From: a virus
Taxonomy: Duplodnaviria; Heunggongvirae; Uroviricota; Caudoviricetes
Virus record (IMG/VR): IMGVR_UViG_2541047945_000006
DNA: 33,563 nt
Reading direction: 5' to 3' (one strand)
Shown: positions 3,095-18,889 of the stretch, piece after piece
Position numbering within the stretch: the stretch's first letter is position 1
How the letters are laid out: each line of letters starts with the position of its first letter
Translations under genes and position numbers: made by a program
The notes under the pieces: generated by a model
Seen by the model: the letters and a program-made list of their open reading frames with translations, nothing else
Database searches by the model: none
Told to the model about the DNA's origin: nothing

Positions 3095-3619
3095 TCACTC
3101 TCCTTTGATGCGAATGCCAGTGGTACTCATTCTCCTGATTTCCCAGAGCACACGAGGAACACCACCGTTTCCGACCGGATCGCGTTTACTCCGCAGGGCG
3201 ACGCTTGATTCCGCCCAGCTTTTTCTTGGAGGAAGCTCTTTCACACGAACAAAACCAGCTGCGCGGAGAGATGCTCCTGATTCATCTGCCTGGGTGTACG
3301 TAATGCAACGTTGATAACCCATAGCCTTTGCTGCCCGCCAGACTTTACGTAAAAAATCGCAGATATAGCCCTTCATTTTTTCGTGCCAATCTCGATCATT
3401 CCCATTGCACCAACCATCAGGTGGAGTCCAGTTTTCTATCAGAGCAGCCATTTTCTTTGCTTTCGCCGGAGTAGCTGTTGCGGTATCGCAGTAATGACGA
3501 GTGTCAACCAACGTATCCATACCATCGATATCAAGTACGCAAAACCATGTGTGATTCGGCATTTCAACAGATGGTATTTGTTGCCCACGTCGACGTTTAT
3601 CAATAAGACATACACTCAC
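3095..3619 (-). CDS. Hypothetical phage protein; possibly Mom-like GNAT-fold DNA-modification protein
   Basis: 174-aa ORF with GTG start preceded by AAGGAGG; motif CITYTQADESGASLRAAGF resembles what I recall of Mom-family acyltransferase-like proteins. Family assignment is tentative. Confidence 0.6.
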   Translation of the reverse strand: MSVCLIDKRRRGQQIPSVEMPNHTWFCVLDIDGMDTLVDTRHYCDTATATPAKAKKMAALIENWTPPDGWCNGNDRDWHEKMKGYICDFLRKVWRAAKAMGYQRCITYTQADESGASLRAAGFVRVKELPPRKSWAESSVALRSKRDPVGNGGVPRVLWEIRRMSTTGIRIKGE

Positions 3620-5280: not shown

Positions 5281-5359
5281 GAATATCTCCTTCATTACCG
5301 ATTAATTCTTTCATCTGACGAATGAATTCTTCGTCTGACCAGTTATCTGCAAAACTCAT
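5189..5359 (-). CDS. Hypothetical small protein (56 aa) translationally coupled to cIII
   Basis: ATG at 5357-5359 overlaps the cIII stop (ATGA); overlaps ORF 5110-5280 in a different frame, so one of the two may be spurious. Confidence 0.4.
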   Translation of the reverse strand: MSFADNWSDEEFIRQMKELIGNEGDIHVTCNHSEGEQVTETHVHAAGVNVSPEGRS

Positions 5360-5526
5360 GGACGGCCTTGTTGTTTCAAAATATCCCAAAGCTTTTCGAG
5401 CAAGCTTTTCATTCTTGGTTGTTTAAAGTCTGCTCCGGTTAAAATATTTTTTCGTGAATGCTGCACCGATAAAATCGGGTTGAAAGGGCGAACCGATGCC
5501 GCCCCTGCAATAGCGAACTGTTGCAT
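5356..5526 (-). CDS. cIII: CIII-like regulator (FtsH inhibitor that stabilises CII)
   Basis: 56-aa ORF (MQQFAIAGAASVRP...SLLEKLWDILKQQGRP) resembling lambda CIII (MQYAIAG...LIDILNQPG); AAGGAG SD 8 nt upstream. Confidence 0.7.
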   Translation of the reverse strand: MQQFAIAGAASVRPFNPILSVQHSRKNILTGADFKQPRMKSLLEKLWDILKQQGRP

Positions 5527-5590
5527 AGGATGCTCCTTCTGTTTGATTGCATAACGAAAACGCCTCAAGTGAAGCGTTATTGGTATGAAT

Positions 5591-5616
5591 ATAAAAAAGC
5601 CCTCACATCGGAGGGC
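5591..5616 (-). terminator. Putative intrinsic terminator in the pL operon (GCCCTC-CGATGT-GAGGGC plus UUUUUU)
   Basis: Hairpin 5599-5616 followed on the minus strand by a U-run; located 65 nt upstream of cIII. Confidence 0.5.
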
Positions 5617-5732
5617 AAAGAAGATTTCCAATAATCAGAACAAGTCGGCTCCTGTTTAGTTACGAGCGACATTGCTCCGTGTATTCACTCGTTGGAATGA
5701 ATACACAGTGCAGTGTTTATTCTGTTGTTTAT

Positions 5733-5761
5733 GCTAAAAATAAAGGCCGACTATGCGGCCT
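5733..5761 (-). terminator. Putative intrinsic terminator overlapping the stop of the 207-aa gene
   Basis: AGGCCG-CATAGT-CGGCCT hairpin followed by UUUAUUUUU on the minus strand. Confidence 0.45.
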
Positions 5762-6374
5762 CGGAAGGAAGTCCAATCATCTTATTCAAATCTTCTACCC
5801 GTAAAGCAGGAAGTGCTGTACTTGCTTTATCTGCTTCTTTTGGTAGCAATTCTTTGCTTTCAGGCCAAACTTCAATAAGTCGCTTAACTGTTGTGACTGA
5901 GTTCAAAGCAGCCCATACATTTGATTCGATATCCTTTTTCTTGGCTTCAAGTTTTTGTTGCAATGCGCAGATTTCATCAAACCTTTTTGTTATTTCGTGC
6001 TCTGCGTCAAACATGCATTTATCTTTGGTCGGAGTAGGGAGCAATATATCTTCGCCGTTGCCGTCTTTCCCATATGAATGCCATCCAACCCTTCTGCCAG
6101 ATACAGTCAGATAAATTGAAGTAGAACGAACATCGTATGAGTAAAATGAACATCCCAGTTTTTCAAGTTCTTCACTTATAGCTACTAACTTGGAATATAA
6201 ATGATCCACTTCCTCAGTTTTCTTTTTACCGCCAAACGCAATAACTCTGGCGTCAAGTGCAAGCTGGTTCTTTAACTTTGTTACTTCTTCAAGTTCAGTG
6301 AAAACCCCAGACTTAATTAAAGCGTTACGAGCGATTTCCTCTTTCATTCTCGTAGTTAAGCGGATTGATGACAT
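5751..6374 (-). CDS. Hypothetical protein (207 aa) in the pL operon between N/sieB and cIII
   Basis: ATG at 6372-6374 with GAGAGGAA SD; charged, coiled-coil-like N-terminus; no family recognised. Confidence 0.65.
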   Translation of the reverse strand: MSSIRLTTRMKEEIARNALIKSGVFTELEEVTKLKNQLALDARVIAFGGKKKTEEVDHLYSKLVAISEELEKLGCSFYSYDVRSTSIYLTVSGRRVGWHSYGKDGNGEDILLPTPTKDKCMFDAEHEITKRFDEICALQQKLEAKKKDIESNVWAALNSVTTVKRLIEVWPESKELLPKEADKASTALPALRVEDLNKMIGLPSEAA

Positions 6375-6385
6375 ATTAATTCCTC

Positions 6386-6589
6386 TCAAATAAGTGGTTT
6401 GCTGCCTAATTTCATTTTCTGGCGACCAACACAAGTCACCCCCATTTCACTGCGTGGCTTGCGGTAGTAAAGATTGTGCCTGTCTTTTAACCACATCAGG
6501 CTCGGTGGTTCTCGTGTACCCCTACAGCGAGAAATCGGATAAACTCTATTCACCCCTACAGAGAGCAAAAGAGAAACGCCGATGAACAA
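6386..6589 (-). other. ORF whose C-terminus resembles the lambda N C-terminus (possible N gene remnant)
   Basis: 67-aa track ORF ending ...YYRKPRSEMGVTCVGRQKMKLGSKPLI, which resembles the lambda N end (...WYSKPGERGITCSGRQKIKGKSIPLI) as I recall it; it lacks an arginine-rich motif. Confidence 0.4.
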
Positions 6590-7163
6590 CTCATGGTGGC
6601 AGGAACTAATGCATTTTTTCCTGCAAGGAATGACACTTAAACAGTTGATTCATATGCTAATCATCCTGATCATATTGATTATTGTTATGCCGGTAAGCGT
6701 AAAAGAATGGATAAACCTGCATAATCCAGAAATCCTTCCTCATTACTGGATGTATTACATCCTGTTGTTTTGCGTTAGCTATGTGCTTAACGGCGTTGTT
6801 AATTCCGCTTATCACGCTGTGACTGAAAGAATTGAGGTATTCGCTGCTCAGAAGCGCAAATCTAAAGAAGAGAAATACGTGCAAGATTTGTTTGATTCGT
6901 TAACTCTTGGAGAAAGAGCGTATTTGGCACTCGCTGTAGTCGCTAATAACCAGCTACAAACGGAAAAGGGAAGCCCTGAAGCAATCTCATTGCTCGAAAA
7001 AGGGCTTCTTATTCGGATACCTTCTGCTACTGGATATCCTGAAATCGACCGTTTTGTTATCCCAGAACGCTATAGAAATGAGTGCTACATTAGGTTTGCT
7101 GGGAAGAAAGACAGTCTTATGGATGAACTTATCGCTCAGGATAAGCACGGCAAAAACAAGTAA
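6582..7163 (+). CDS. sieB: Superinfection exclusion protein B
   Basis: 193-aa protein closely matching lambda/P22 SieB from memory (MNNSWWQELM.FFLQGMTLKQLIHMLIILI...); hydrophobic N-terminal region; convergent with N. Confidence 0.82.
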   Translation: MNNSWWQELMHFFLQGMTLKQLIHMLIILIILIIVMPVSVKEWINLHNPEILPHYWMYYILLFCVSYVLNGVVNSAYHAVTERIEVFAAQKRKSKEEKYVQDLFDSLTLGERAYLALAVVANNQLQTEKGSPEAISLLEKGLLIRIPSATGYPEIDRFVIPERYRNECYIRFAGKKDSLMDELIAQDKHGKNK

Positions 7164-7179
7164 TTAGCAAATTAATTTA

Positions 7180-7452
7180 TCATCTTGCTGTCAGTTGTTT
7201 TGATTTCCGATAGCCTGCCGCGTAAAGAGCTACATTTGGAAGACAAGTTGAGCCTTCATATTTTCTGGTCAACGTTGTCAGTGTTATTACTTCTGCTCTC
7301 ATTGCTGGTTTGCGCTTGCATTGCAAGACCACTCGTGAAGGGGTTGGCCTGTGTAGCTTGTCGGAGCTGATCGCCTCCTGACTTTGCAGATTTGCACGAC
7401 GAGCTCTACGGCGAGAAGCTGCGGTGCCTTTAAATTCTGTTTTTCTGGACAT
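7180..7452 (-). CDS. N: N-type transcription antiterminator with arginine-rich motif
   Basis: 90-aa ORF from ATG 7450-7452 (GGGAGGAA SD); N-terminal arginine-rich motif KGTAASRRRARRANLQ resembles phi21/P22 N; sits immediately downstream of a boxA/boxB nutL site. Confidence 0.7.
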   Translation of the reverse strand: MSRKTEFKGTAASRRRARRANLQSQEAISSDKLHRPTPSRVVLQCKRKPAMRAEVITLTTLTRKYEGSTCLPNVALYAAGYRKSKQLTAR

Positions 7453-7550
7453 AGATTCCTCCCGAATAAACTTTGGCGATGCAATCTCGAAGCCCCTCCT
7501 GAGACGGTTGCTTCGGCATTGCATCCCACAGCTTATGTGGTTGGGTGATC

Positions 7551-7642: not shown

Positions 7643-7690
7643 ACTTTATCGAAATGATAAATTAATGGCAATAGCAAAATGATAAATTGT
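7643..7690 (-). promoter_or_regulatory. OL operators and candidate pL (-35 TTGCCA, 17-bp spacer, -10 TAAAGT on minus)
   Basis: 17-bp palindrome TTTATCGAAATGATAAA at 7645-7661 and direct repeats AAATGATAAATT at 7652-7663 and 7677-7688; same GATAAA half-sites and -10 TAAAGT as in the OR region. Confidence 0.5.
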
Positions 7691-7865
7691 TTTAGTTTTC
7701 AAATATCCTGTTGATTATTATGGTTTTTTATTTGATTGCAGGAATTTATCAGAAGGAATAAAGAGACTTGAGGGGGATCAGAATTGCGCGTTTTAGTGAG
7801 TTGTATCTGTTTATTTTTCAACAAATACAATTGGTTATGGTGTTATTAGGTGTGGGGATCGTGAG

Positions 7866-7893
7866 GCAAAGAAAACCCGGCACTGAGGCCGGG
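7866..7893 (-). terminator. Intrinsic terminator after the cI-proximal cargo gene (CCCGGC-CTCAGT-GCCGGG plus UUUUCUUU)
   Basis: Perfect 6-bp GC stem followed by a U-run on the minus strand, 12 nt after the stop of ORF 7905-8951. Confidence 0.6.
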
Positions 7894-7904
7894 TTTGGAG
7901 TGCA

Positions 7905-8951
7905 TCACTCTGGTTCGCTGGGGAATATATTTATCAATTGTCCTGTTGAAATGTGTCCATTTTCTACAACCTCTAGGTATGAAATTTCAACAGTTGATTC
8001 TTTGGCTACAGCATTCAAAAACTCAAGAAGCTCATCAGTAGATGTTATGTCGGCTGAGGTTTTTATGGTGAAAGATTCACCATTTGAAACCCTTGTGACG
8101 TCAATATTTATGTCCTGATTTGTTTCTCCCGAGCGACGAACGCCCGTGACATAAAAGTTATCTCTTCTAGTTTCCTTTTTTCGATCAATTGATTGCCTTT
8201 GGTTTAAGGTATTCAACTGTTCTCTATTTACCACTCTCTGACCAATTGTTACCTTCTCAACTGACGAGTCTTGAGCAAGCTTTTTAAGCAACTTGCTTTT
8301 ACCATCCTCGCCGTGAGCCAGAACCTCTCTGCTAATGTTTGTTTGACCGCTAATCAACAACTTGAGCACATTGTCTTGTGCTTCGTTTACCGCTTTGGTG
8401 CTTTTTTCCACCAATTGCACCTGAGAATCTTGGTCATGTCGCTGTGTTTCGTAGTACTCATTGATCCACTTATAGCCTACCGTGCTGGCAGCTAAGACGA
8501 TAGCGGCGACGGCGCATAGTGCTTGCCTTCCTGTCATTTTGCCTATCGCTTGAGTTAACACTGTCACCACTCCGTTTACAATCGGATCTGAGTCACCATC
8601 CGCTTGGCTTGAGCCTTCGCTTATTCGGTAGACAATATCCAGCAAACCTTTCTCTGCATCTTTTAGCTTCTGCCGATTATGAGTGCTGTGACTGACTACC
8701 GTAAATGCTTTTTGTATTTCATGCGTAAGCTCTGCCATACCAAAAAGCATTGACGCAGTCAATGAAGAATTATATCTATTTGGATCGCCTTTTACATTAA
8801 TATTGATCTTTGGCCATCCACTGAAAACTACGCTAGGGAATGTGAAGTCGCTTGAGTCGATATCCTTCCTTCCGAGCATTTCTGTTACAAAAGATACAAA
8901 GTCGTCTTCTGACTTGATAACATATTGCGCAGGTTGATCAATCGCTGACAT
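7905..8951 (-). CDS. Uncharacterised 348-aa protein with one predicted transmembrane helix (rex-slot cargo)
   Basis: ATG at 8949-8951 with AAGGA SD, 76 nt downstream of the cI stop on the same strand; hydrophobic segment LCAVAAIVLAASTVGY mid-protein; no Walker A or other motif I recognise; unlike RexA/RexB. Confidence 0.8.
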   Translation of the reverse strand: MSAIDQPAQYVIKSEDDFVSFVTEMLGRKDIDSSDFTFPSVVFSGWPKININVKGDPNRYNSSLTASMLFGMAELTHEIQKAFTVVSHSTHNRQKLKDAEKGLLDIVYRISEGSSQADGDSDPIVNGVVTVLTQAIGKMTGRQALCAVAAIVLAASTVGYKWINEYYETQRHDQDSQVQLVEKSTKAVNEAQDNVLKLLISGQTNISREVLAHGEDGKSKLLKKLAQDSSVEKVTIGQRVVNREQLNTLNQRQSIDRKKETRRDNFYVTGVRRSGETNQDINIDVTRVSNGESFTIKTSADITSTDELLEFLNAVAKESTVEISYLEVVENGHISTGQLINIFPSEPE

Positions 8952-9027: not shown

Positions 9028-9732
9028 TCACGAATTTTTCAGCCACTCCCTTGCCTCGATGTCATCCAGATGACGAGATTGCTTCAGAATACCAGCCACA
9101 TACTCCACCTTTGCTACTTGATGATAAGGCAACGTTATTGGCCTATGGTCCTGGTTGATGCTTGTAAACTGGTATTCTCCGTCTCTGTCATAGCCAAGAA
9201 CTTTGATCATGTTGTGTCCTTCAACGGTTCTGACAAACACCTCATCACCCGGGAATACTTTGGTGTTAGGCTCAATGAGTACATATTCTCCTGATTTTAT
9301 TCTAGGCCACATGCTGTCTCCTTTCACACGAAGACCAAAGGCATCTGGATCATCGCTATAAATCTTGAGCCACCCATCGCGCTCTTCGGTCATCTCGATG
9401 GCACCATCAACACCAAGAATTGCCTCACCAACCACGCGCACTAACCCTTTTCTTACCTGACCGACAAAAGTTAAAGAATCTGAGCATGATGCAATTGGTG
9501 TTACATCATGTACCAAATCAAGCCACCCATTAGGTAACCCAAGTGCGGCTTCGAATTTTCTTGCTAGTTTATCCCCTATGTTTCGAGTGCTTTTTTCACC
9601 GGAGACTTGCGTGAGTTGAGAAGGGCTAACTCCAAGCTTATCGGCAAAGCTTGCATTAGTGTTACCCGCGATTTTTTTATGCTCATCTAGCAAAAACGCC
9701 AGATTCGATTTGCGAATATCTTTGTTTTCCAT
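9028..9732 (-). CDS. cI: CI-type prophage repressor (HTH plus LexA-like S24 autopeptidase domain)
   Basis: 234-aa ORF; N-terminal HTH region and C-terminal S24 domain with the GDSMWP motif and a lysine further downstream; divergent from cro across an operator region. Confidence 0.9.
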   Translation of the reverse strand: MENKDIRKSNLAFLLDEHKKIAGNTNASFADKLGVSPSQLTQVSGEKSTRNIGDKLARKFEAALGLPNGWLDLVHDVTPIASCSDSLTFVGQVRKGLVRVVGEAILGVDGAIEMTEERDGWLKIYSDDPDAFGLRVKGDSMWPRIKSGEYVLIEPNTKVFPGDEVFVRTVEGHNMIKVLGYDRDGEYQFTSINQDHRPITLPYHQVAKVEYVAGILKQSRHLDDIEAREWLKNS

Positions 9733-13183: not shown

Positions 13184-13604
13184 AATTCGATCCCCAGCAC
13201 ATCAGCAAAACGCTATTCACGCAGTACAGCAAATCCTTCCAGACCCAACCAAACCAATCGTAGTAACCATTCAGGAACGCAACCGCAGCTTAGACCAAAA
13301 TCGGAAGCTTTGGGCTTGCCTTGGTGACGTTTCGCGTCAGGTTGAATGGCATGGTCGATGGCTGGATGCAGAAAGCTGGAAGTGCGTTTTTACAGCAGCA
13401 TTAAAGCAGCAGGACGTTGTTCCTAACCTTGCCGGGAATGGCTTTGTGGTAATAGGCCAGTCAACCAGCAGGATGCGTGTAAGCGAATTTGCGGAGCTAT
13501 TAGAGCTTATACAGGCATTTGGTACAGAGCATGGCGTTAAGTGGTCAGACGAAGCGCGACTGGCTCTGGAGTGGAAAGCGCGATGGGGAGATCGGGCTGC
13601 ATGA
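13164..13604 (+). CDS. ninB: NinB (Orf-family recombination mediator)
   Basis: 146-aa protein essentially matching lambda NinB as I recall it (MKKLTFEIRSPAHQQNAIHAVQQILPDPTKPIVVTIQERNRSLDQNRKLWACLGD...). Confidence 0.9.
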   Translation: MKKLTFEIRSPAHQQNAIHAVQQILPDPTKPIVVTIQERNRSLDQNRKLWACLGDVSRQVEWHGRWLDAESWKCVFTAALKQQDVVPNLAGNGFVVIGQSTSRMRVSEFAELLELIQAFGTEHGVKWSDEARLALEWKARWGDRAA

Positions 13605-14128
13605 CTATCAAATCAAATACGCCAGCACACGACAAGGACTGCTGGCAAACGCCGCTTTGGCTTTTTGATGCACTGGATATTGAGTTTGGATTCTGGCTGG
13701 ATTCGGCAGCGAGCGACAAAAACGCTCTGTGCGCTCACTGGCTAACTGAGGCTGATGACGCGCTAAATTCTGAGTGGATAAGCCACGGTGCAATCTGGAA
13801 TAACCCACCGTACAGCAATATCAGGCCGTGGGTGGAAAAAGCCGCTGAGCAGTGCATACAACAGCGACAGACGGTAGTTATGCTTGTGCCAGGGGATATG
13901 TCTGTCGGATGGTTCAGCAAGGCTCTGGAGAGTGTCGACGAAGTTCGCATTATCACTGATGGACGGATTAATTTTATCGAACCATCGACAGGGCTGGAGA
14001 AGAAGGGAAACAGTAAAGGCTCAATGCTGCTGATTTGGCGACCGTTCATCAGTCCTCGACGGATGTTTACTACCGTATCCAAAGCGGCATTGATGGCGAT
14101 CGGGCAGGGCGTCAGGAGGGCGGCATGA
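13601..14128 (+). CDS. DNA N6-adenine methyltransferase (phage Dam-like)
   Basis: NPPY catalytic motif (IWNNPPYSN); internal ATG at 13601 overlaps the ninB stop (ATGA), preferred over the track's upstream start. Confidence 0.82.
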
Positions 14129-15550: not shown

Positions 15551-16193
15551 TGGCAGCAAATACCGAAATATTTGGGTAGTTGGCGATCTGCACGGATGCT
15601 ACACGAACCTGATGAAAAAACTGGAGACGATAGGATTCGACACCAAAAAAGACCTGCTTATCTCGGTTGGCGATTTGGTTGATCGCGGTACAGAGAACGT
15701 CGAATGCCTGGAATTAATCACATTCCCCTGGTTCAGAGCTGTACGTGGAAACCATGAGCAAATGATGATTGATGGCTTATCAGAGCGTGGAAACGTCAAT
15801 CACTGGCTGTTTAATGGCGGTGGCTGGTTCTTTAATCTCGATTACGACAAAGAAATTCTGGCTAAAGCTCTTGCCCATAAAGCAGATGAACTTCCGTTAA
15901 TCATTGAACTGGTGAGTAAAGGTAAAAAATATGTCATCTGCCACGCCGATTATCCTTGTGACGAATACGAATTTGGAAAGCCAGTTGATTATCAGCAGGT
16001 AATCTGGAACCGCGAACGAATCAGCAACTCACAAGACGGGGTCGTGAAAGAAATCAAAGGCGCGGACACGTTCATCTTTGGTCATACGCCAGCAGTGAAA
16101 CCACTCAAATTTGCCAACCAGATGTATATCGATACTGGGGCAGTGTTCTGCGGAAATCTCACATTGATTCAGGTACAGGGAGAAGGCGCATGA
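15528..16193 (+). CDS. Ser/Thr protein phosphatase (lambda NinI-like)
   Basis: Calcineurin-like metallophosphatase motifs (GDLHG, GDLVDRG, GNHE); start taken at internal ATG 15528 (MRYYEKIDG) to give the 221-aa lambda-like protein. Confidence 0.85.
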
Positions 16194-16813
16194 GACTCGA
16201 AAGCGTAGCTAAATTTCATTCGCCAAAAAGCCCGATGATGAGTGACTCACCACGGGCCACGGCTTCTGACTCTCTTTCCGGTACTGATGTGATGGCTGCT
16301 ATGGGGATGGCGCAATCACAAGCCGGATTCGGAATGGCTGCATTCTGTGGTAAGCACGAACTCAGCCAGAACGACAAACAAAAGGCTATCAACTATCTGA
16401 TGCAATTTGCACACAAGGTATCGGGGAAATACCGTGGTGTGGCAAAGCTTGAAGGAAATACTAAGGCAAAGGTACTGCAAGTGCTCGCAACATTCGCTTA
16501 TGCGGATTATTGCCGTAGTGCCGCGACGCCGGGCGCAAGATGCAGAGATTGCCACGGTACAGGCCGTGCGGTTGATATAGCCAAAACGGAGCAGTGGGGG
16601 AGAGTTGTTGAGAAAGAGTGCGGAAGATGCAAAGGTGTCGGCTATTCAAGAATGCCAGCAAGCGCCGCATATCGCGCTGTAACGATGCTAATCCCAAACC
16701 TTACTCAACCCACCTGGTCACGCACTGTTAAGCCACTGTATGACGCTCTGGTGGCGCAATGCCACAAGGAAGAGTCAATCGCAGACAACATTTTGAATTC
16801 AGTTACACGTTAA
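16190..16813 (+). CDS. Q: Late-gene antiterminator Q
   Basis: 207-aa ORF matching lambda Q from memory, including the zinc-binding cysteines (CRDCHGTG...CGRCKG). Confidence 0.9.
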
Positions 16814-17087: not shown

Positions 17088-17162
17088 GGGTCAGTCGTAT
17101 AAAGGTCATTACGGAAGGCTGTTAACCTTCTTATCGTGGTTCGAGTCCACGCTGTCCCGCCA
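17088..17162 (+). tRNA. tRNA-like gene, predicted anticodon GUU (Asn)
   Basis: Manual cloverleaf: acceptor GGGTCAG/CTGTCCC (one mismatch), U8, D-loop with GG, perfect 5-bp anticodon stem with loop CTGTTAA, T-arm CGTGG-TTCGAGT-CCACG, encoded GCCA 3' end. Confidence 0.5.
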
Positions 17163-17167
17163 AACAT

Positions 17168-17243
17168 GCTGGTTTAGCTCCAATGGTAGAGCGGTCGCCT
17201 TGTAAGCGAATGGGTAGCGGTTCAAGTCCGTTAACCAGCACCA
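17168..17243 (+). tRNA. tRNA-like gene, predicted anticodon UGU (Thr)
   Basis: Manual cloverleaf: perfect acceptor GCTGGTT/AACCAGC, D-arm GCTC/GAGC, anticodon loop CTTGTAA, T-loop TTCAAGT, encoded ACCA 3' end. Confidence 0.6.
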
Positions 17244-17361: not shown

Positions 17362-17607
17362 ATGAAATCAATGGACAAAATCTCAACTGGCATTGCCTAC
17401 GGAACATCTGCTGGTAGTGCGGGATACTGGTTTTTGCAGTGGTTGGATCAGGTCAGTCCGTCACAGTGGGCTGCGATTGGAGTGCTTGGAAGCCTTGTGT
17501 TGGGTTTTCTCACTTATCTGACAAATCTGTATTTCAAAATCAGAGAAGACAGACGAAAGGCTGCGAGTGAACCGCCCCGGGTTTCCTGGAGAGTATTTTA
17601 TCTGTGA
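17362..17607 (+). CDS. S: Phage-21-type pinholin S21 with IS-altered C-terminus
   Basis: Dual-start MKSMDKI and SAR-type TM region match S21 from memory; the last codons (ARGE-stop in intact S21) are replaced by a read-through into the IS end ([13 protein letters not shown]). Confidence 0.8.
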
Positions 17608-17609
17608 AC

Positions 17610-18500
17610 TCAGGCTGCCAGATCATCGTTTCCGATGGAAGCATAATAAGCTTTTTCTGCTTCTGCCGGAGGAGTATGGCCCAGCCTTTCCAGCAATCGT
17701 CGATTGTTATACCAGTCCACCCACGTGAGTGTGGCCAGTTCCACTTCTGCACGGTTTTTCCAGCTCTTACGGTGTATTACCTCCGCTTTGTAAAGACCAT
17801 TGATGCTCTCCGCCATCGCGTTGTCATACGAGTCGCCTGTACTTCCTGTTGATGCCAGTAATCCGGCTTCCTTAAGCCGCTGTGTGTAGGCCAGCGATAC
17901 ATACTGAGAACCTTTATCACTGTGATGGACCGTGCCGGACGGTCGACGGGCCCATAACGCCTGCTCCAGTGCATCCAGCACGAATGTCGTCTCCATGGAC
18001 GATGAGACCCGCCACCCCACAATGTATCCGGCAAACACATCAATGATGAACGCCACATAGACGAAGCCCTGCCATGTGCTGACGTAAGTAAAATCAGCCA
18101 CCCACAGCTGGTCAGGTCGTTCTGCCACGAACTGACGGTTTACGCGGTCGCCTGCGGCAACGGCTTTCCGGCTGATGGTCGTACGGACCTTTTTACCCCG
18201 GAGAACACCGGCAAGTCCCATAACCGCCATGAGACGTGCCACAGTGCATCTGGCCACTCTGATACCTTCCCGTAACAACTGACGCCAGACTTTACGCACA
18301 CCGTATACCTTGTGATTTTCATCGTATACGCGCTGTATCTCTTTCTTCAGCCAGTCATCGCGCTGCGCACGGGCACTGCGTTTATCCGGATGATGTCGCT
18401 GTTGCTGACAGTGGTAATACGTTGACGGGGCAATATGCAGTTCGCTGCATAGCGGTCCGACCCCGTACTGCTCACGCAGCTTATCCAGCAGTGGCATCAT
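17610..18500 (-). CDS. IS3-family transposase OrfB (DDE integrase-like catalytic domain)
   Basis: 296-aa ORF of typical IS3-family OrfB character; overlaps orfA as expected for -1 frameshift fusion. Confidence 0.85.
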
Positions 18501-18823
18501 TTTTTCCAGAGGCGGTCGAACTCCGCCTTCGCAAAATAAGCGGAAGCCTGGCGAAGGATATCGTTACTGCGGCGCAGTTCACGATTTTCACGCTCCAGCT
18601 CTTTCAGACGCTGACGTTCAGCGGTGGTGAGCCCTCCATCACCGCCCCCGGTATCCCGCTCATGCTGGCGAACCCAGACACGCAGAGTCTCCGGCGTACA
18701 GCCAATCTTTGGAGCAATGGAACAAATTGTCGCCCATTGTGAGTCATATTCGCCCTGACTTTCCAGAACCATACGGACTGCCCGTTGACGGACTTCAGGG
18801 GAAAAACGAGTATTTTTAGTCAT
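18497..18823 (-). CDS. IS3-family transposase OrfA (HTH plus leucine zipper)
   Basis: 108-aa ORF ([57 protein letters not shown]...) that I recall as IS629/IS1203-type OrfA. Confidence 0.85.
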
Positions 18824-18889
18824 CCTGTTTACCTCTTTCTCAGGAAGTTTAGTCTCCAGGATTCCCGGGGCGGTTCAGAGAGGTGAATA

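Follow-up and report, generated by a model that had tools for sequence, protein, structure and literature searches.

The 33,563-nucleotide DNA of IMG/VR virus record IMGVR_UViG_2541047945_000006, here called the window, is a P22-like lambdoid prophage; its structural half resembles the P22-like phages CUS-3 and Kapi1. The pL operon of the window contains a real, intact prophage gene at positions 5751-6374, which encodes a protein of the Nmad5 family. Modelling and conservation suggest that this protein is most likely a binder or an adaptor and not an enzyme. The explanation that we favour, with a probability of about 0.4, is that Nmad5 is a non-catalytic, immediate-early adaptor which binds a conserved partner tied to replicating phage DNA, and that it does so through a conserved C-terminal block. 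The features on which this account draws are listed in Table 1.

Family membership

The protein was at first described as unassigned and as having no motif that could be placed. It is in fact a full-length member of Pfam family PF18757 (Nmad5, "nucleotide modification associated domain 5"): the alignment pairs residues 4-203 with positions 1-206 of the 206-position profile (E=1.5e-71), and a score of 241.1 bits, against a curated cut-off of 27, places the gene far beyond chance. It also matches PHROG 1965 (E=3.7e-83), a family annotated as of unknown function. The Nmad5 label has already been applied by the Kapi1 annotation and by RefSeq/PGAP, where WP_000095077 is called "Nmad5 family putative nucleotide modification protein". 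Identity is 97.6% to the mEp235 protein, 96-98% overall to the proteins of mEp235, HK542, HK244 and Stx1 phages, 94% to the Kapi1 homologue (Kapi1_018) and up to 99% to prophage copies in IMG/VR.

The family signature, T-x3-L-x3-WPE-x2-EL-x-P ... LP ... LN-x3-GLP, is complete in the window protein, and its companions R5/L6, A18, R43, GG48-49 and G93 are also present. Signature and companion residues are 80-100% conserved among 159 representatives below 60% identity. The protein is a stand-alone single domain of 207 residues, which fits the family length of about 190-215 residues. Judged by its sequence, the gene is a typical member of a large, already catalogued phage family and not a new discovery. 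The NCBIfam and PADLOC libraries have no match to it, and no Ral or other anti-restriction Pfam family matches at E<1. The weak Pfam relatives found in a permissive scan with 52 members (such as P4Ha_N and NET2A_C) are coiled-coil noise only.

The name of the family reportedly rests, in the work of Iyer and colleagues of 2013, on a neighbourhood of nucleotide- or base-modification genes. Such a neighbourhood is a contextual trait and not a criterion of sequence membership. There are no nucleotide- or base-modification genes next to Nmad5 in the window; the adjacent genes are N, sieB, cIII and those for Erf, SSB and Abc2. Literature searches for mEp235, HK542 and PF18757 found no functional data, and the experimental data on Nmad5 that were found in the literature all concern a Dhillonvirus homologue.

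Called mechanically, the open reading frame starts further upstream, with a TTG at 6434; family alignments and homologues begin at MSSIRLT, which makes the ATG at 6374 the likely start. The original prediction described a good Shine-Dalgarno sequence and a terminator at the end of the gene; both are present. The Shine-Dalgarno sequence GAGAGGAA is identical in E. coli TUM1880, whose full N gene stops 11 nucleotides ahead of the ATG. At the 3' end there is a hairpin with a U-run, and a second terminator-like hairpin lies further downstream.

Structure and conservation

AlphaFold2, run with an alignment of 52 sequences, gave a model of the window protein with a predicted local distance difference test score (pLDDT) of 87.5 and a predicted template modelling score of 0.74. 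In the model, residues 8-22, 24-47 and 50-72 form helices; a small sheet (86-121) and a long helix (127-158) come next, and short helices (163-187) precede a low-confidence tail. A charged, helical N-terminal half had been foreseen from the sequence, and the model agrees. A 28%-identical relative is modelled with the same topology (pLDDT 89.5), and in it the C-terminal LN..GLP helix is placed at moderate confidence. The fold in both models is elongated and helical with a small beta-sheet. Structure prediction, which had been proposed as a check on the gene, thus gave a consistent fold in two models. It did not lead to a relative of solved structure: no similar solved structure and no enzyme-like fold was found, and the structural matches in BFVD are other Nmad5 proteins. 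Sequence searches of solved structures, with the single sequence or with a 52-sequence profile, gave nothing significant.

Among the 159 representatives, the conserved positions of the N-terminal and middle regions are R5, L6, I14, A18, K21, G23, R43, G48, G49, G93 and V153. Those of the C-terminal region are T162, L166, W170, P171, E172, E175, L176 and P178, followed by L188, P189, L196, N197, G201, L202 and P203. The conserved residues are mostly structural and are concentrated in the last 45 positions; no catalytic constellation was found among them. The window protein has an isoelectric point (pI) of 6.4 and a net charge of -1, and the family median pI is 7.6. Since it is neither strongly acidic nor strongly basic, a DNA mimic of the Ocr/ArdA type is ruled out by charge. 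The reading as a binder or adaptor follows from the mostly structural residues, the lack of a catalytic set, the unremarkable charge and the fact that the only weak Pfam relatives are coiled-coil noise.

The pL operon and the Nmad5 module

The open reading frame had been placed in the pL operon, in the accessory slot between the N/sieB region and cIII, and the annotation of its neighbours agrees with this. N is the first gene of the pL transcript. The boxA-like and boxB-like elements between pL and N are a probable nutL; an alternative hairpin to the boxB-like one, GTCGA-ACAC-TCGAC, is found at 7582-7569. Directly ahead of Nmad5 lies a remnant of a second, lambda-type N. The functional N of the window is a different allele from this remnant, and sieB sits between the two. 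This makes the remnant, which is joined to the Nmad5 module, a scar of mosaic recombination within N, and it marks the left edge of the module.

A conserved block of DNA from about 5550 to 6480, which contains the gene and both terminators, is common to 73-80 of 80 prophage loci. Around this block, the N, sieB, cIII and recombinase modules vary among the 80 loci. Nmad5 is a self-contained mosaic module. A full N open reading frame abuts Nmad5, with an 11-nucleotide gap, in 31 of the 80 loci. Simple pattern scans of the stretch from N to Nmad5 detected no terminator. Nmad5 therefore probably shares with N a transcript that reaches it ahead of the first terminators; it would then be an immediate-early gene that needs no antitermination.

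Distribution and selection

A profile search of 1.84 billion representative proteins found 2,325 Nmad5 clusters (50% identity) at E<=1e-3. Of the 150 representatives that score highest, nearly all are stand-alone and 190-220 residues long. Homologues are found in lambdoid phages, in N4-like phages of Shigella, Salmonella and Klebsiella, in Vibrio phages of about 72 kb, in Pseudomonas phages of about 56-62 kb (including Bella, with an M6-like gene order), in Bordetella phages and in the cyanophage Pam3. About 146 Dhillonvirus records have a near-full-length match. A first IMG/VR scan gave only near-identical E. coli copies, and a scan of the genome collection with a narrow peptide pattern gave 12 loci only. 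Nmad5 is present in 6 of 72,556 plasmid records, all of them phage-sized or phage-like; so small and phage-like a set rules out the idea that Nmad5 belongs to plasmid leading regions or anti-defence islands.

A match is present in 1,417 of 5,426 complete E. coli genomes, about one in four, but in only 201 of them does it cover 80% of the query or more. In the Stx2a phage LC616032.1 (1238-3025), Nmad5 is split near codon 33 by an element of the IS3 family of insertion sequences (IS), and the other listed Stx2a phages have the same truncated match. This split probably explains many of the partial matches in E. coli genomes. The window carries an IS3-family element of its own, which is 95.7% identical to the one that interrupts Nmad5 in the Stx2a phage and has an ALIL frameshift pseudoknot (RF01497) at 18426-18542.

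Among the IMG/VR prophage copies, 78 of 80 are intact, and the ratio of nonsynonymous to synonymous polymorphism (pN/pS) is 0.32. These copies and the IS split in the examined Stx2a phage together indicate that the gene is under purifying selection yet dispensable. A decaying pseudogene is ruled out by the intact copies and the purifying selection.

Genomic contexts

In lambdoid phages, Nmad5 lies 3' of N and 5' of either Erf or RecT modules. The order in the N4-like phage B2 is PolA, DUF6378, ThyX, Nmad5, PD-(D/E)XK nuclease, primase, AAA protein and SSB. In Pam3 and in the Pseudomonas phage Bella, Nmad5 adjoins a thymidylate-synthase-like gene upstream of PolA; in Pam3, aGPT-Pplase1 is also directly upstream of Nmad5. 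A Salmonella prophage has the order DUF2800 nuclease, Enc34 SSB, PerC, Nmad5, PolA. In one metagenomic phage Nmad5 opens an early operon opposite a Cro/YdaS-like gene and is followed by an SNF2 helicase, a DUF3799 nuclease and AAA_24. Another metagenomic-context locus, a prophage, has an MT-A70 methylase two genes from Nmad5. The Dhillonvirus gene is on the opposite strand to the head and packaging genes. A position beside divergent Mu_F/portal genes, in the head module and not in the early region, recurs in four otherwise different phage groups.

None of the adjacent genes is conserved throughout these contexts. A conserved partner gene was sought among neighbours of about 260-440 residues from diverse loci; the only mutually related ones are head-module proteins from a single phage lineage.

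It is very unlikely that Nmad5 truly is an enzyme that modifies nucleotides or DNA bases, an assumption made in the family name and in the Dhillonvirus paper (Yamashita et al. 2025, PMC11846954). The family was named from a neighbourhood of base-modification genes, and Pam3 has a cassette of this kind, with aGPT-Pplase, kinase and thymidylate-synthase-like genes; the same is reported for the M6-like phage SN1. The MT-A70 methylase of the prophage above fits as well, as do two genes of the window, one for a phage Dam and one for a protein that weakly matches a Mom-like family. However, most of the contexts examined, the window included, have no adjacent modification genes, and the Dam gene of the window is 7 kb away in the pR operon. 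Nmad5 and Dam do not strictly co-occur, because the relative NRG 857C carries Nmad5 and has no Dam in the examined part of its nin region. The protein itself also speaks against an enzyme: no enzyme-like fold, structural neighbour or conserved catalytic residues were found, and coiled-coil noise is all that the weak Pfam relatives amount to. In the Tmn literature the label "DNA modification enzyme" rests on the family name only. Caution is advised with this naming, which is implied both by the Tmn paper and by the RefSeq product name.

The Dhillonvirus homologue and Tmn

Dhillonvirus mutants that escape Tmn carry nmad5 K216E (SM_A8) or K296E (SM_S22), and Tmn sensitivity is restored when the mutation is reverted (PMC11846954). 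Deletion of nmad5 is viable in the Dhillonvirus and gives no escape from Tmn; the gene could not be cloned and is apparently toxic (PMC11846954). In the SM_A8 sequence, K216 is the second K of T-D-K-K-L. In the alignment its counterpart in the window protein is R165 of T-V-K-R-L, where the conserved block begins, so that a basic residue is present at the Tmn-escape position in the window protein too. Tmn is directly triggered by T2 RIIB, which is described as an early replisome- and membrane-associated protein (2026 preprint, PMC13001434). The triggers of defence reported with Dhillonvirus SECphi18 (Ksap1/Avs2 and portal/RAZR) are different proteins from Nmad5 and are not relevant here.

According to the original prediction, the gene is a candidate for an anti-defence or host-takeover function. 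A dedicated anti-defence protein would be made right after infection and would neutralise or evade a host immune system (restriction, abortive infection or a Tmn-type sensor) by binding it directly. An anti-defence role is possible; as the explanation of the gene it is rather unlikely. The N-to-cIII accessory slot, the co-transcription with N, the self-contained mosaic module and the dispensability of the gene (the IS split in the examined Stx2a phage, the deletion in the Dhillonvirus) all agree with it. A non-enzymatic fold suits a binder, a missense change in the conserved block of the Dhillonvirus homologue overcomes Tmn, and that homologue is apparently toxic when cloned. Yet wild-type Dhillonvirus Nmad5 gives no protection from Tmn and its deletion is neutral; only the gain-of-function allele helps. 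The motif is invariant in phages whose hosts are enterobacteria, Pseudomonas, Vibrio and cyanobacteria; proteins that bind fast-evolving defence proteins are seldom so constant. Nmad5 is almost absent from plasmids, and with a pI of 6.4 it is no DNA mimic. In virulent phages it lies within replication and nucleotide-metabolism cassettes. As for anti-restriction in particular, there is no similarity to Ral, and one E. coli prophage has a Ral gene annotated beside Nmad5.

Proposed role of Nmad5

In the adaptor explanation, Nmad5 would be an elongated bundle of helices, one end of which carries a small beta-sheet. Transcription from pL together with N, ahead of the first terminators, would allow the protein to be made at once on infection or induction, without antitermination. 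The C-terminal block (T-x3-L-x3-WPE-x2-EL-x-P ... LP-x6-LN-x3-GLP) probably docks a partner, which may be the replisome, the nucleotide supply or the DNA-modification machinery. The same block would be the surface at which charge reversal changes the Tmn outcome in the homologue. Nmad5 would be a dispensable fitness factor and not an enzyme. The family assignment, the topology of the fold, the pattern of conservation, the layout of the operon, the mosaic behaviour and the dispensability in a relative are shown by the data; the N-independent timing, the binding to another protein and the kind of partner are inferred.

Several points weigh against this account. We know of no DNA hypermodification in lambdoid phages or Dhillonviruses. 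The ThyA-like and ThyX neighbours of Nmad5 have unrelated folds, so no single enzyme partner fits all Nmad5 contexts. In Dhillonviruses and three metagenomic phages, the neighbours of Nmad5 are head and packaging genes (terminase, portal and Mu_F) and not replication genes. That N and Nmad5 have no terminator between them rests on simple pattern scans. The Tmn result was obtained with a homologue of 24-26% identity, and no mechanism has been worked out for it.

A more far-reaching form of the adaptor explanation is unlikely. Here Nmad5 would be a pan-phage, non-enzymatic hub, whose C-terminal peptide would dock a universal bacterial factor at the interface of membrane and replisome; it would organise or shield early phage DNA synthesis and so set whether sensors such as Tmn fire. 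If this is true, lambdoid Nmad5, made with N before antitermination, would be a third immediate-early function of lambda-like phages.

It is also conceivable, though distinctly improbable, that Nmad5 is a host-takeover factor which acts, in the manner of Kil from a later gene of the pL operon, on a conserved host machine outside DNA metabolism, for example RNA polymerase or cell division. Early expression and the toxicity of the homologue on cloning would suit such a factor, and the invariant peptide suggests a universally conserved host target. There is no similarity to known phage proteins that bind RNA polymerase or FtsZ, however, and the recurrent polymerase, nuclease, SSB and thymidylate synthase neighbours point to DNA metabolism instead.

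Nmad5 is among the larger phage protein families of untested function, with members in lambdoid, N4-like, M6-like and Dhillonvirus phages and in a cyanophage. The lambdoid gene sits in the best-understood operon of phage biology, and it is a tractable entry point to the family. If it is true that Nmad5 is made with N before antitermination, it would be an overlooked immediate-early function in lambda-like phages.

Other features of the window

A protein of 348 residues is encoded between cI and pL, in the slot of rexAB. It has no Pfam, PADLOC or PDB match, and matches only PHROG 6191 (function unknown). A protein of phage phi458 shares 98.9% identity with it, and "T2SS GspM containing" proteins that occupy this slot in PhiR12 phages share about 25%. 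The gene is a candidate for an exclusion or defence function carried by the prophage.

The protein with the Mom-like match (174 residues; 3095-3619, minus strand) belongs to the pL operon. Its N-terminal part is a DUF7739, and its C-terminal part weakly matches PHROG 1384, "Mom-like DNA modification protein" (E=3e-11). As this stretch is shared by just 9 of 80 related loci, the gene has no link with Nmad5. Genes for tRNA-Asn(GTT) (17088-17162) and tRNA-Thr(TGT) (17168-17243) are found on the plus strand, directly 3' of the Q antiterminator gene (16190-16813).

Table 1. Coordinates of Nmad5, its signals and other features of the window
Feature	Position	Strand	Basis and remarks
Nmad5-family coding sequence, 207 residues	5751..6374	minus	open reading frame from ATG 6374 to stop at 5751
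Shine-Dalgarno GAGAGGAA	6380..6387	minus	read from sequence; 5 bases 5' of ATG; overlaps stop codon of N remnant
Conserved C-terminal block, codons 162-203 (T.KRL...WPE..EL.P ... LP...LN...GLP), includes R165	5766..5891	minus	conservation over 159 representatives and alignments
Intrinsic terminator-like hairpin and U-run, GGCCGCAUAGUCGGCC+UUUAUUUUU	5743..5762	minus	pattern scan; RNAfold -13 kcal/mol; overlaps Nmad5 stop codon
Second terminator-like hairpin, GCCCUCC...GAGGGC, then UUUUUU	5599..5616	minus	pattern scan and RNAfold; within conserved module
N remnant, last 27 codons of lambda-type N	6386..6466	minus	25/27 residues equal the C-terminus of the full N of E. coli TUM1880
SieB	6582-7163	plus	
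N antiterminator	7180..7455	minus	PF25694 N_peptide, E=2.3e-32; phrog_271
boxB-like hairpin TGGC-TGAAAA-GCCA	7564-7551	minus	between pL and N
boxA-like GCTCTTTAA	7596-7588	minus	between pL and N
pL-like promoter TTGCCA-17-TAAAGT	7643..7671	minus	promoter scan; overlaps two 17-nucleotide operator-like repeats, 7647-7663 and 7672-7688
348-residue protein in rex slot	7905-8951	minus	own terminator at about 7861-7908
S24 cI-type repressor	9028-9732	minus	
cIII	about 5356-5526	minus	followed by Arf-like small protein, Erf, SSB, Abc2, integrase
Phage Dam-type N6-adenine methyltransferase	13541-14128	plus	PF05869, E=1e-64; nin region
IS3-family element (orfA 108 residues, orfB 296 residues)	~17565-18879	minus	downstream of Q and tRNAs

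Comparison with known systems

The closest systems are the lambdoid Nmad5 genes of mEp235, HK542/HK244, Kapi1 (Kapi1_018) and Stx1 phages. They match the window gene in length, in their slot directly after N and in the terminators that follow. They differ from the window in the flanking mosaic only: in the window, sieB and another N allele have been inserted, and a 27-codon remnant of N has been left.

The Nmad5 proteins of hypermodifying phages (the Pseudomonas M6/SN1-like phages and Pam3_51 of the cyanophage) belong to the same family and have the same size. In Pam3, and in SN1 as reported, the gene is inside an aGPT-Pplase, kinase and thymidylate-synthase-like cassette upstream of DNA polymerase, whereas the window has none of these adjacent. 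For Bella, only thymidylate-synthase and polymerase neighbours are annotated.

The Dhillonvirus proteins (SM_A8 CDS7 and SM_S22 CDS6) are full-length members of PF18757 (E=7e-56 for the Bas85 orthologue) and have the C-terminal WPE...LN..GIP block. Unlike the window protein, to which they are 24-26% identical, they carry about 45 extra residues, inserted in the beta region, and their genes lie in an opposite-strand, two-gene island between scaffold and Mu_F/portal in a virulent siphovirus. Toxicity, deletability and K-to-E escape from Tmn are phenotypes of the Dhillonvirus protein, which the lambdoid protein may or may not share.

Ral of lambda is a small, early, non-enzymatic accessory protein of the pL operon, and its slot in lambda and P22 is equivalent to that of Nmad5. 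Ral modulates DNA modification by a host enzyme. It has no sequence or family relationship to Nmad5, for which we know of no restriction phenotype.

T2 RIIB is unrelated to Nmad5 in sequence, and loss of RIIB function escapes Tmn whereas deletion of Nmad5 does not. It resembles the proposed Nmad5 as an early, dispensable, replisome-linked accessory protein in which single-residue changes decide the Tmn outcome.
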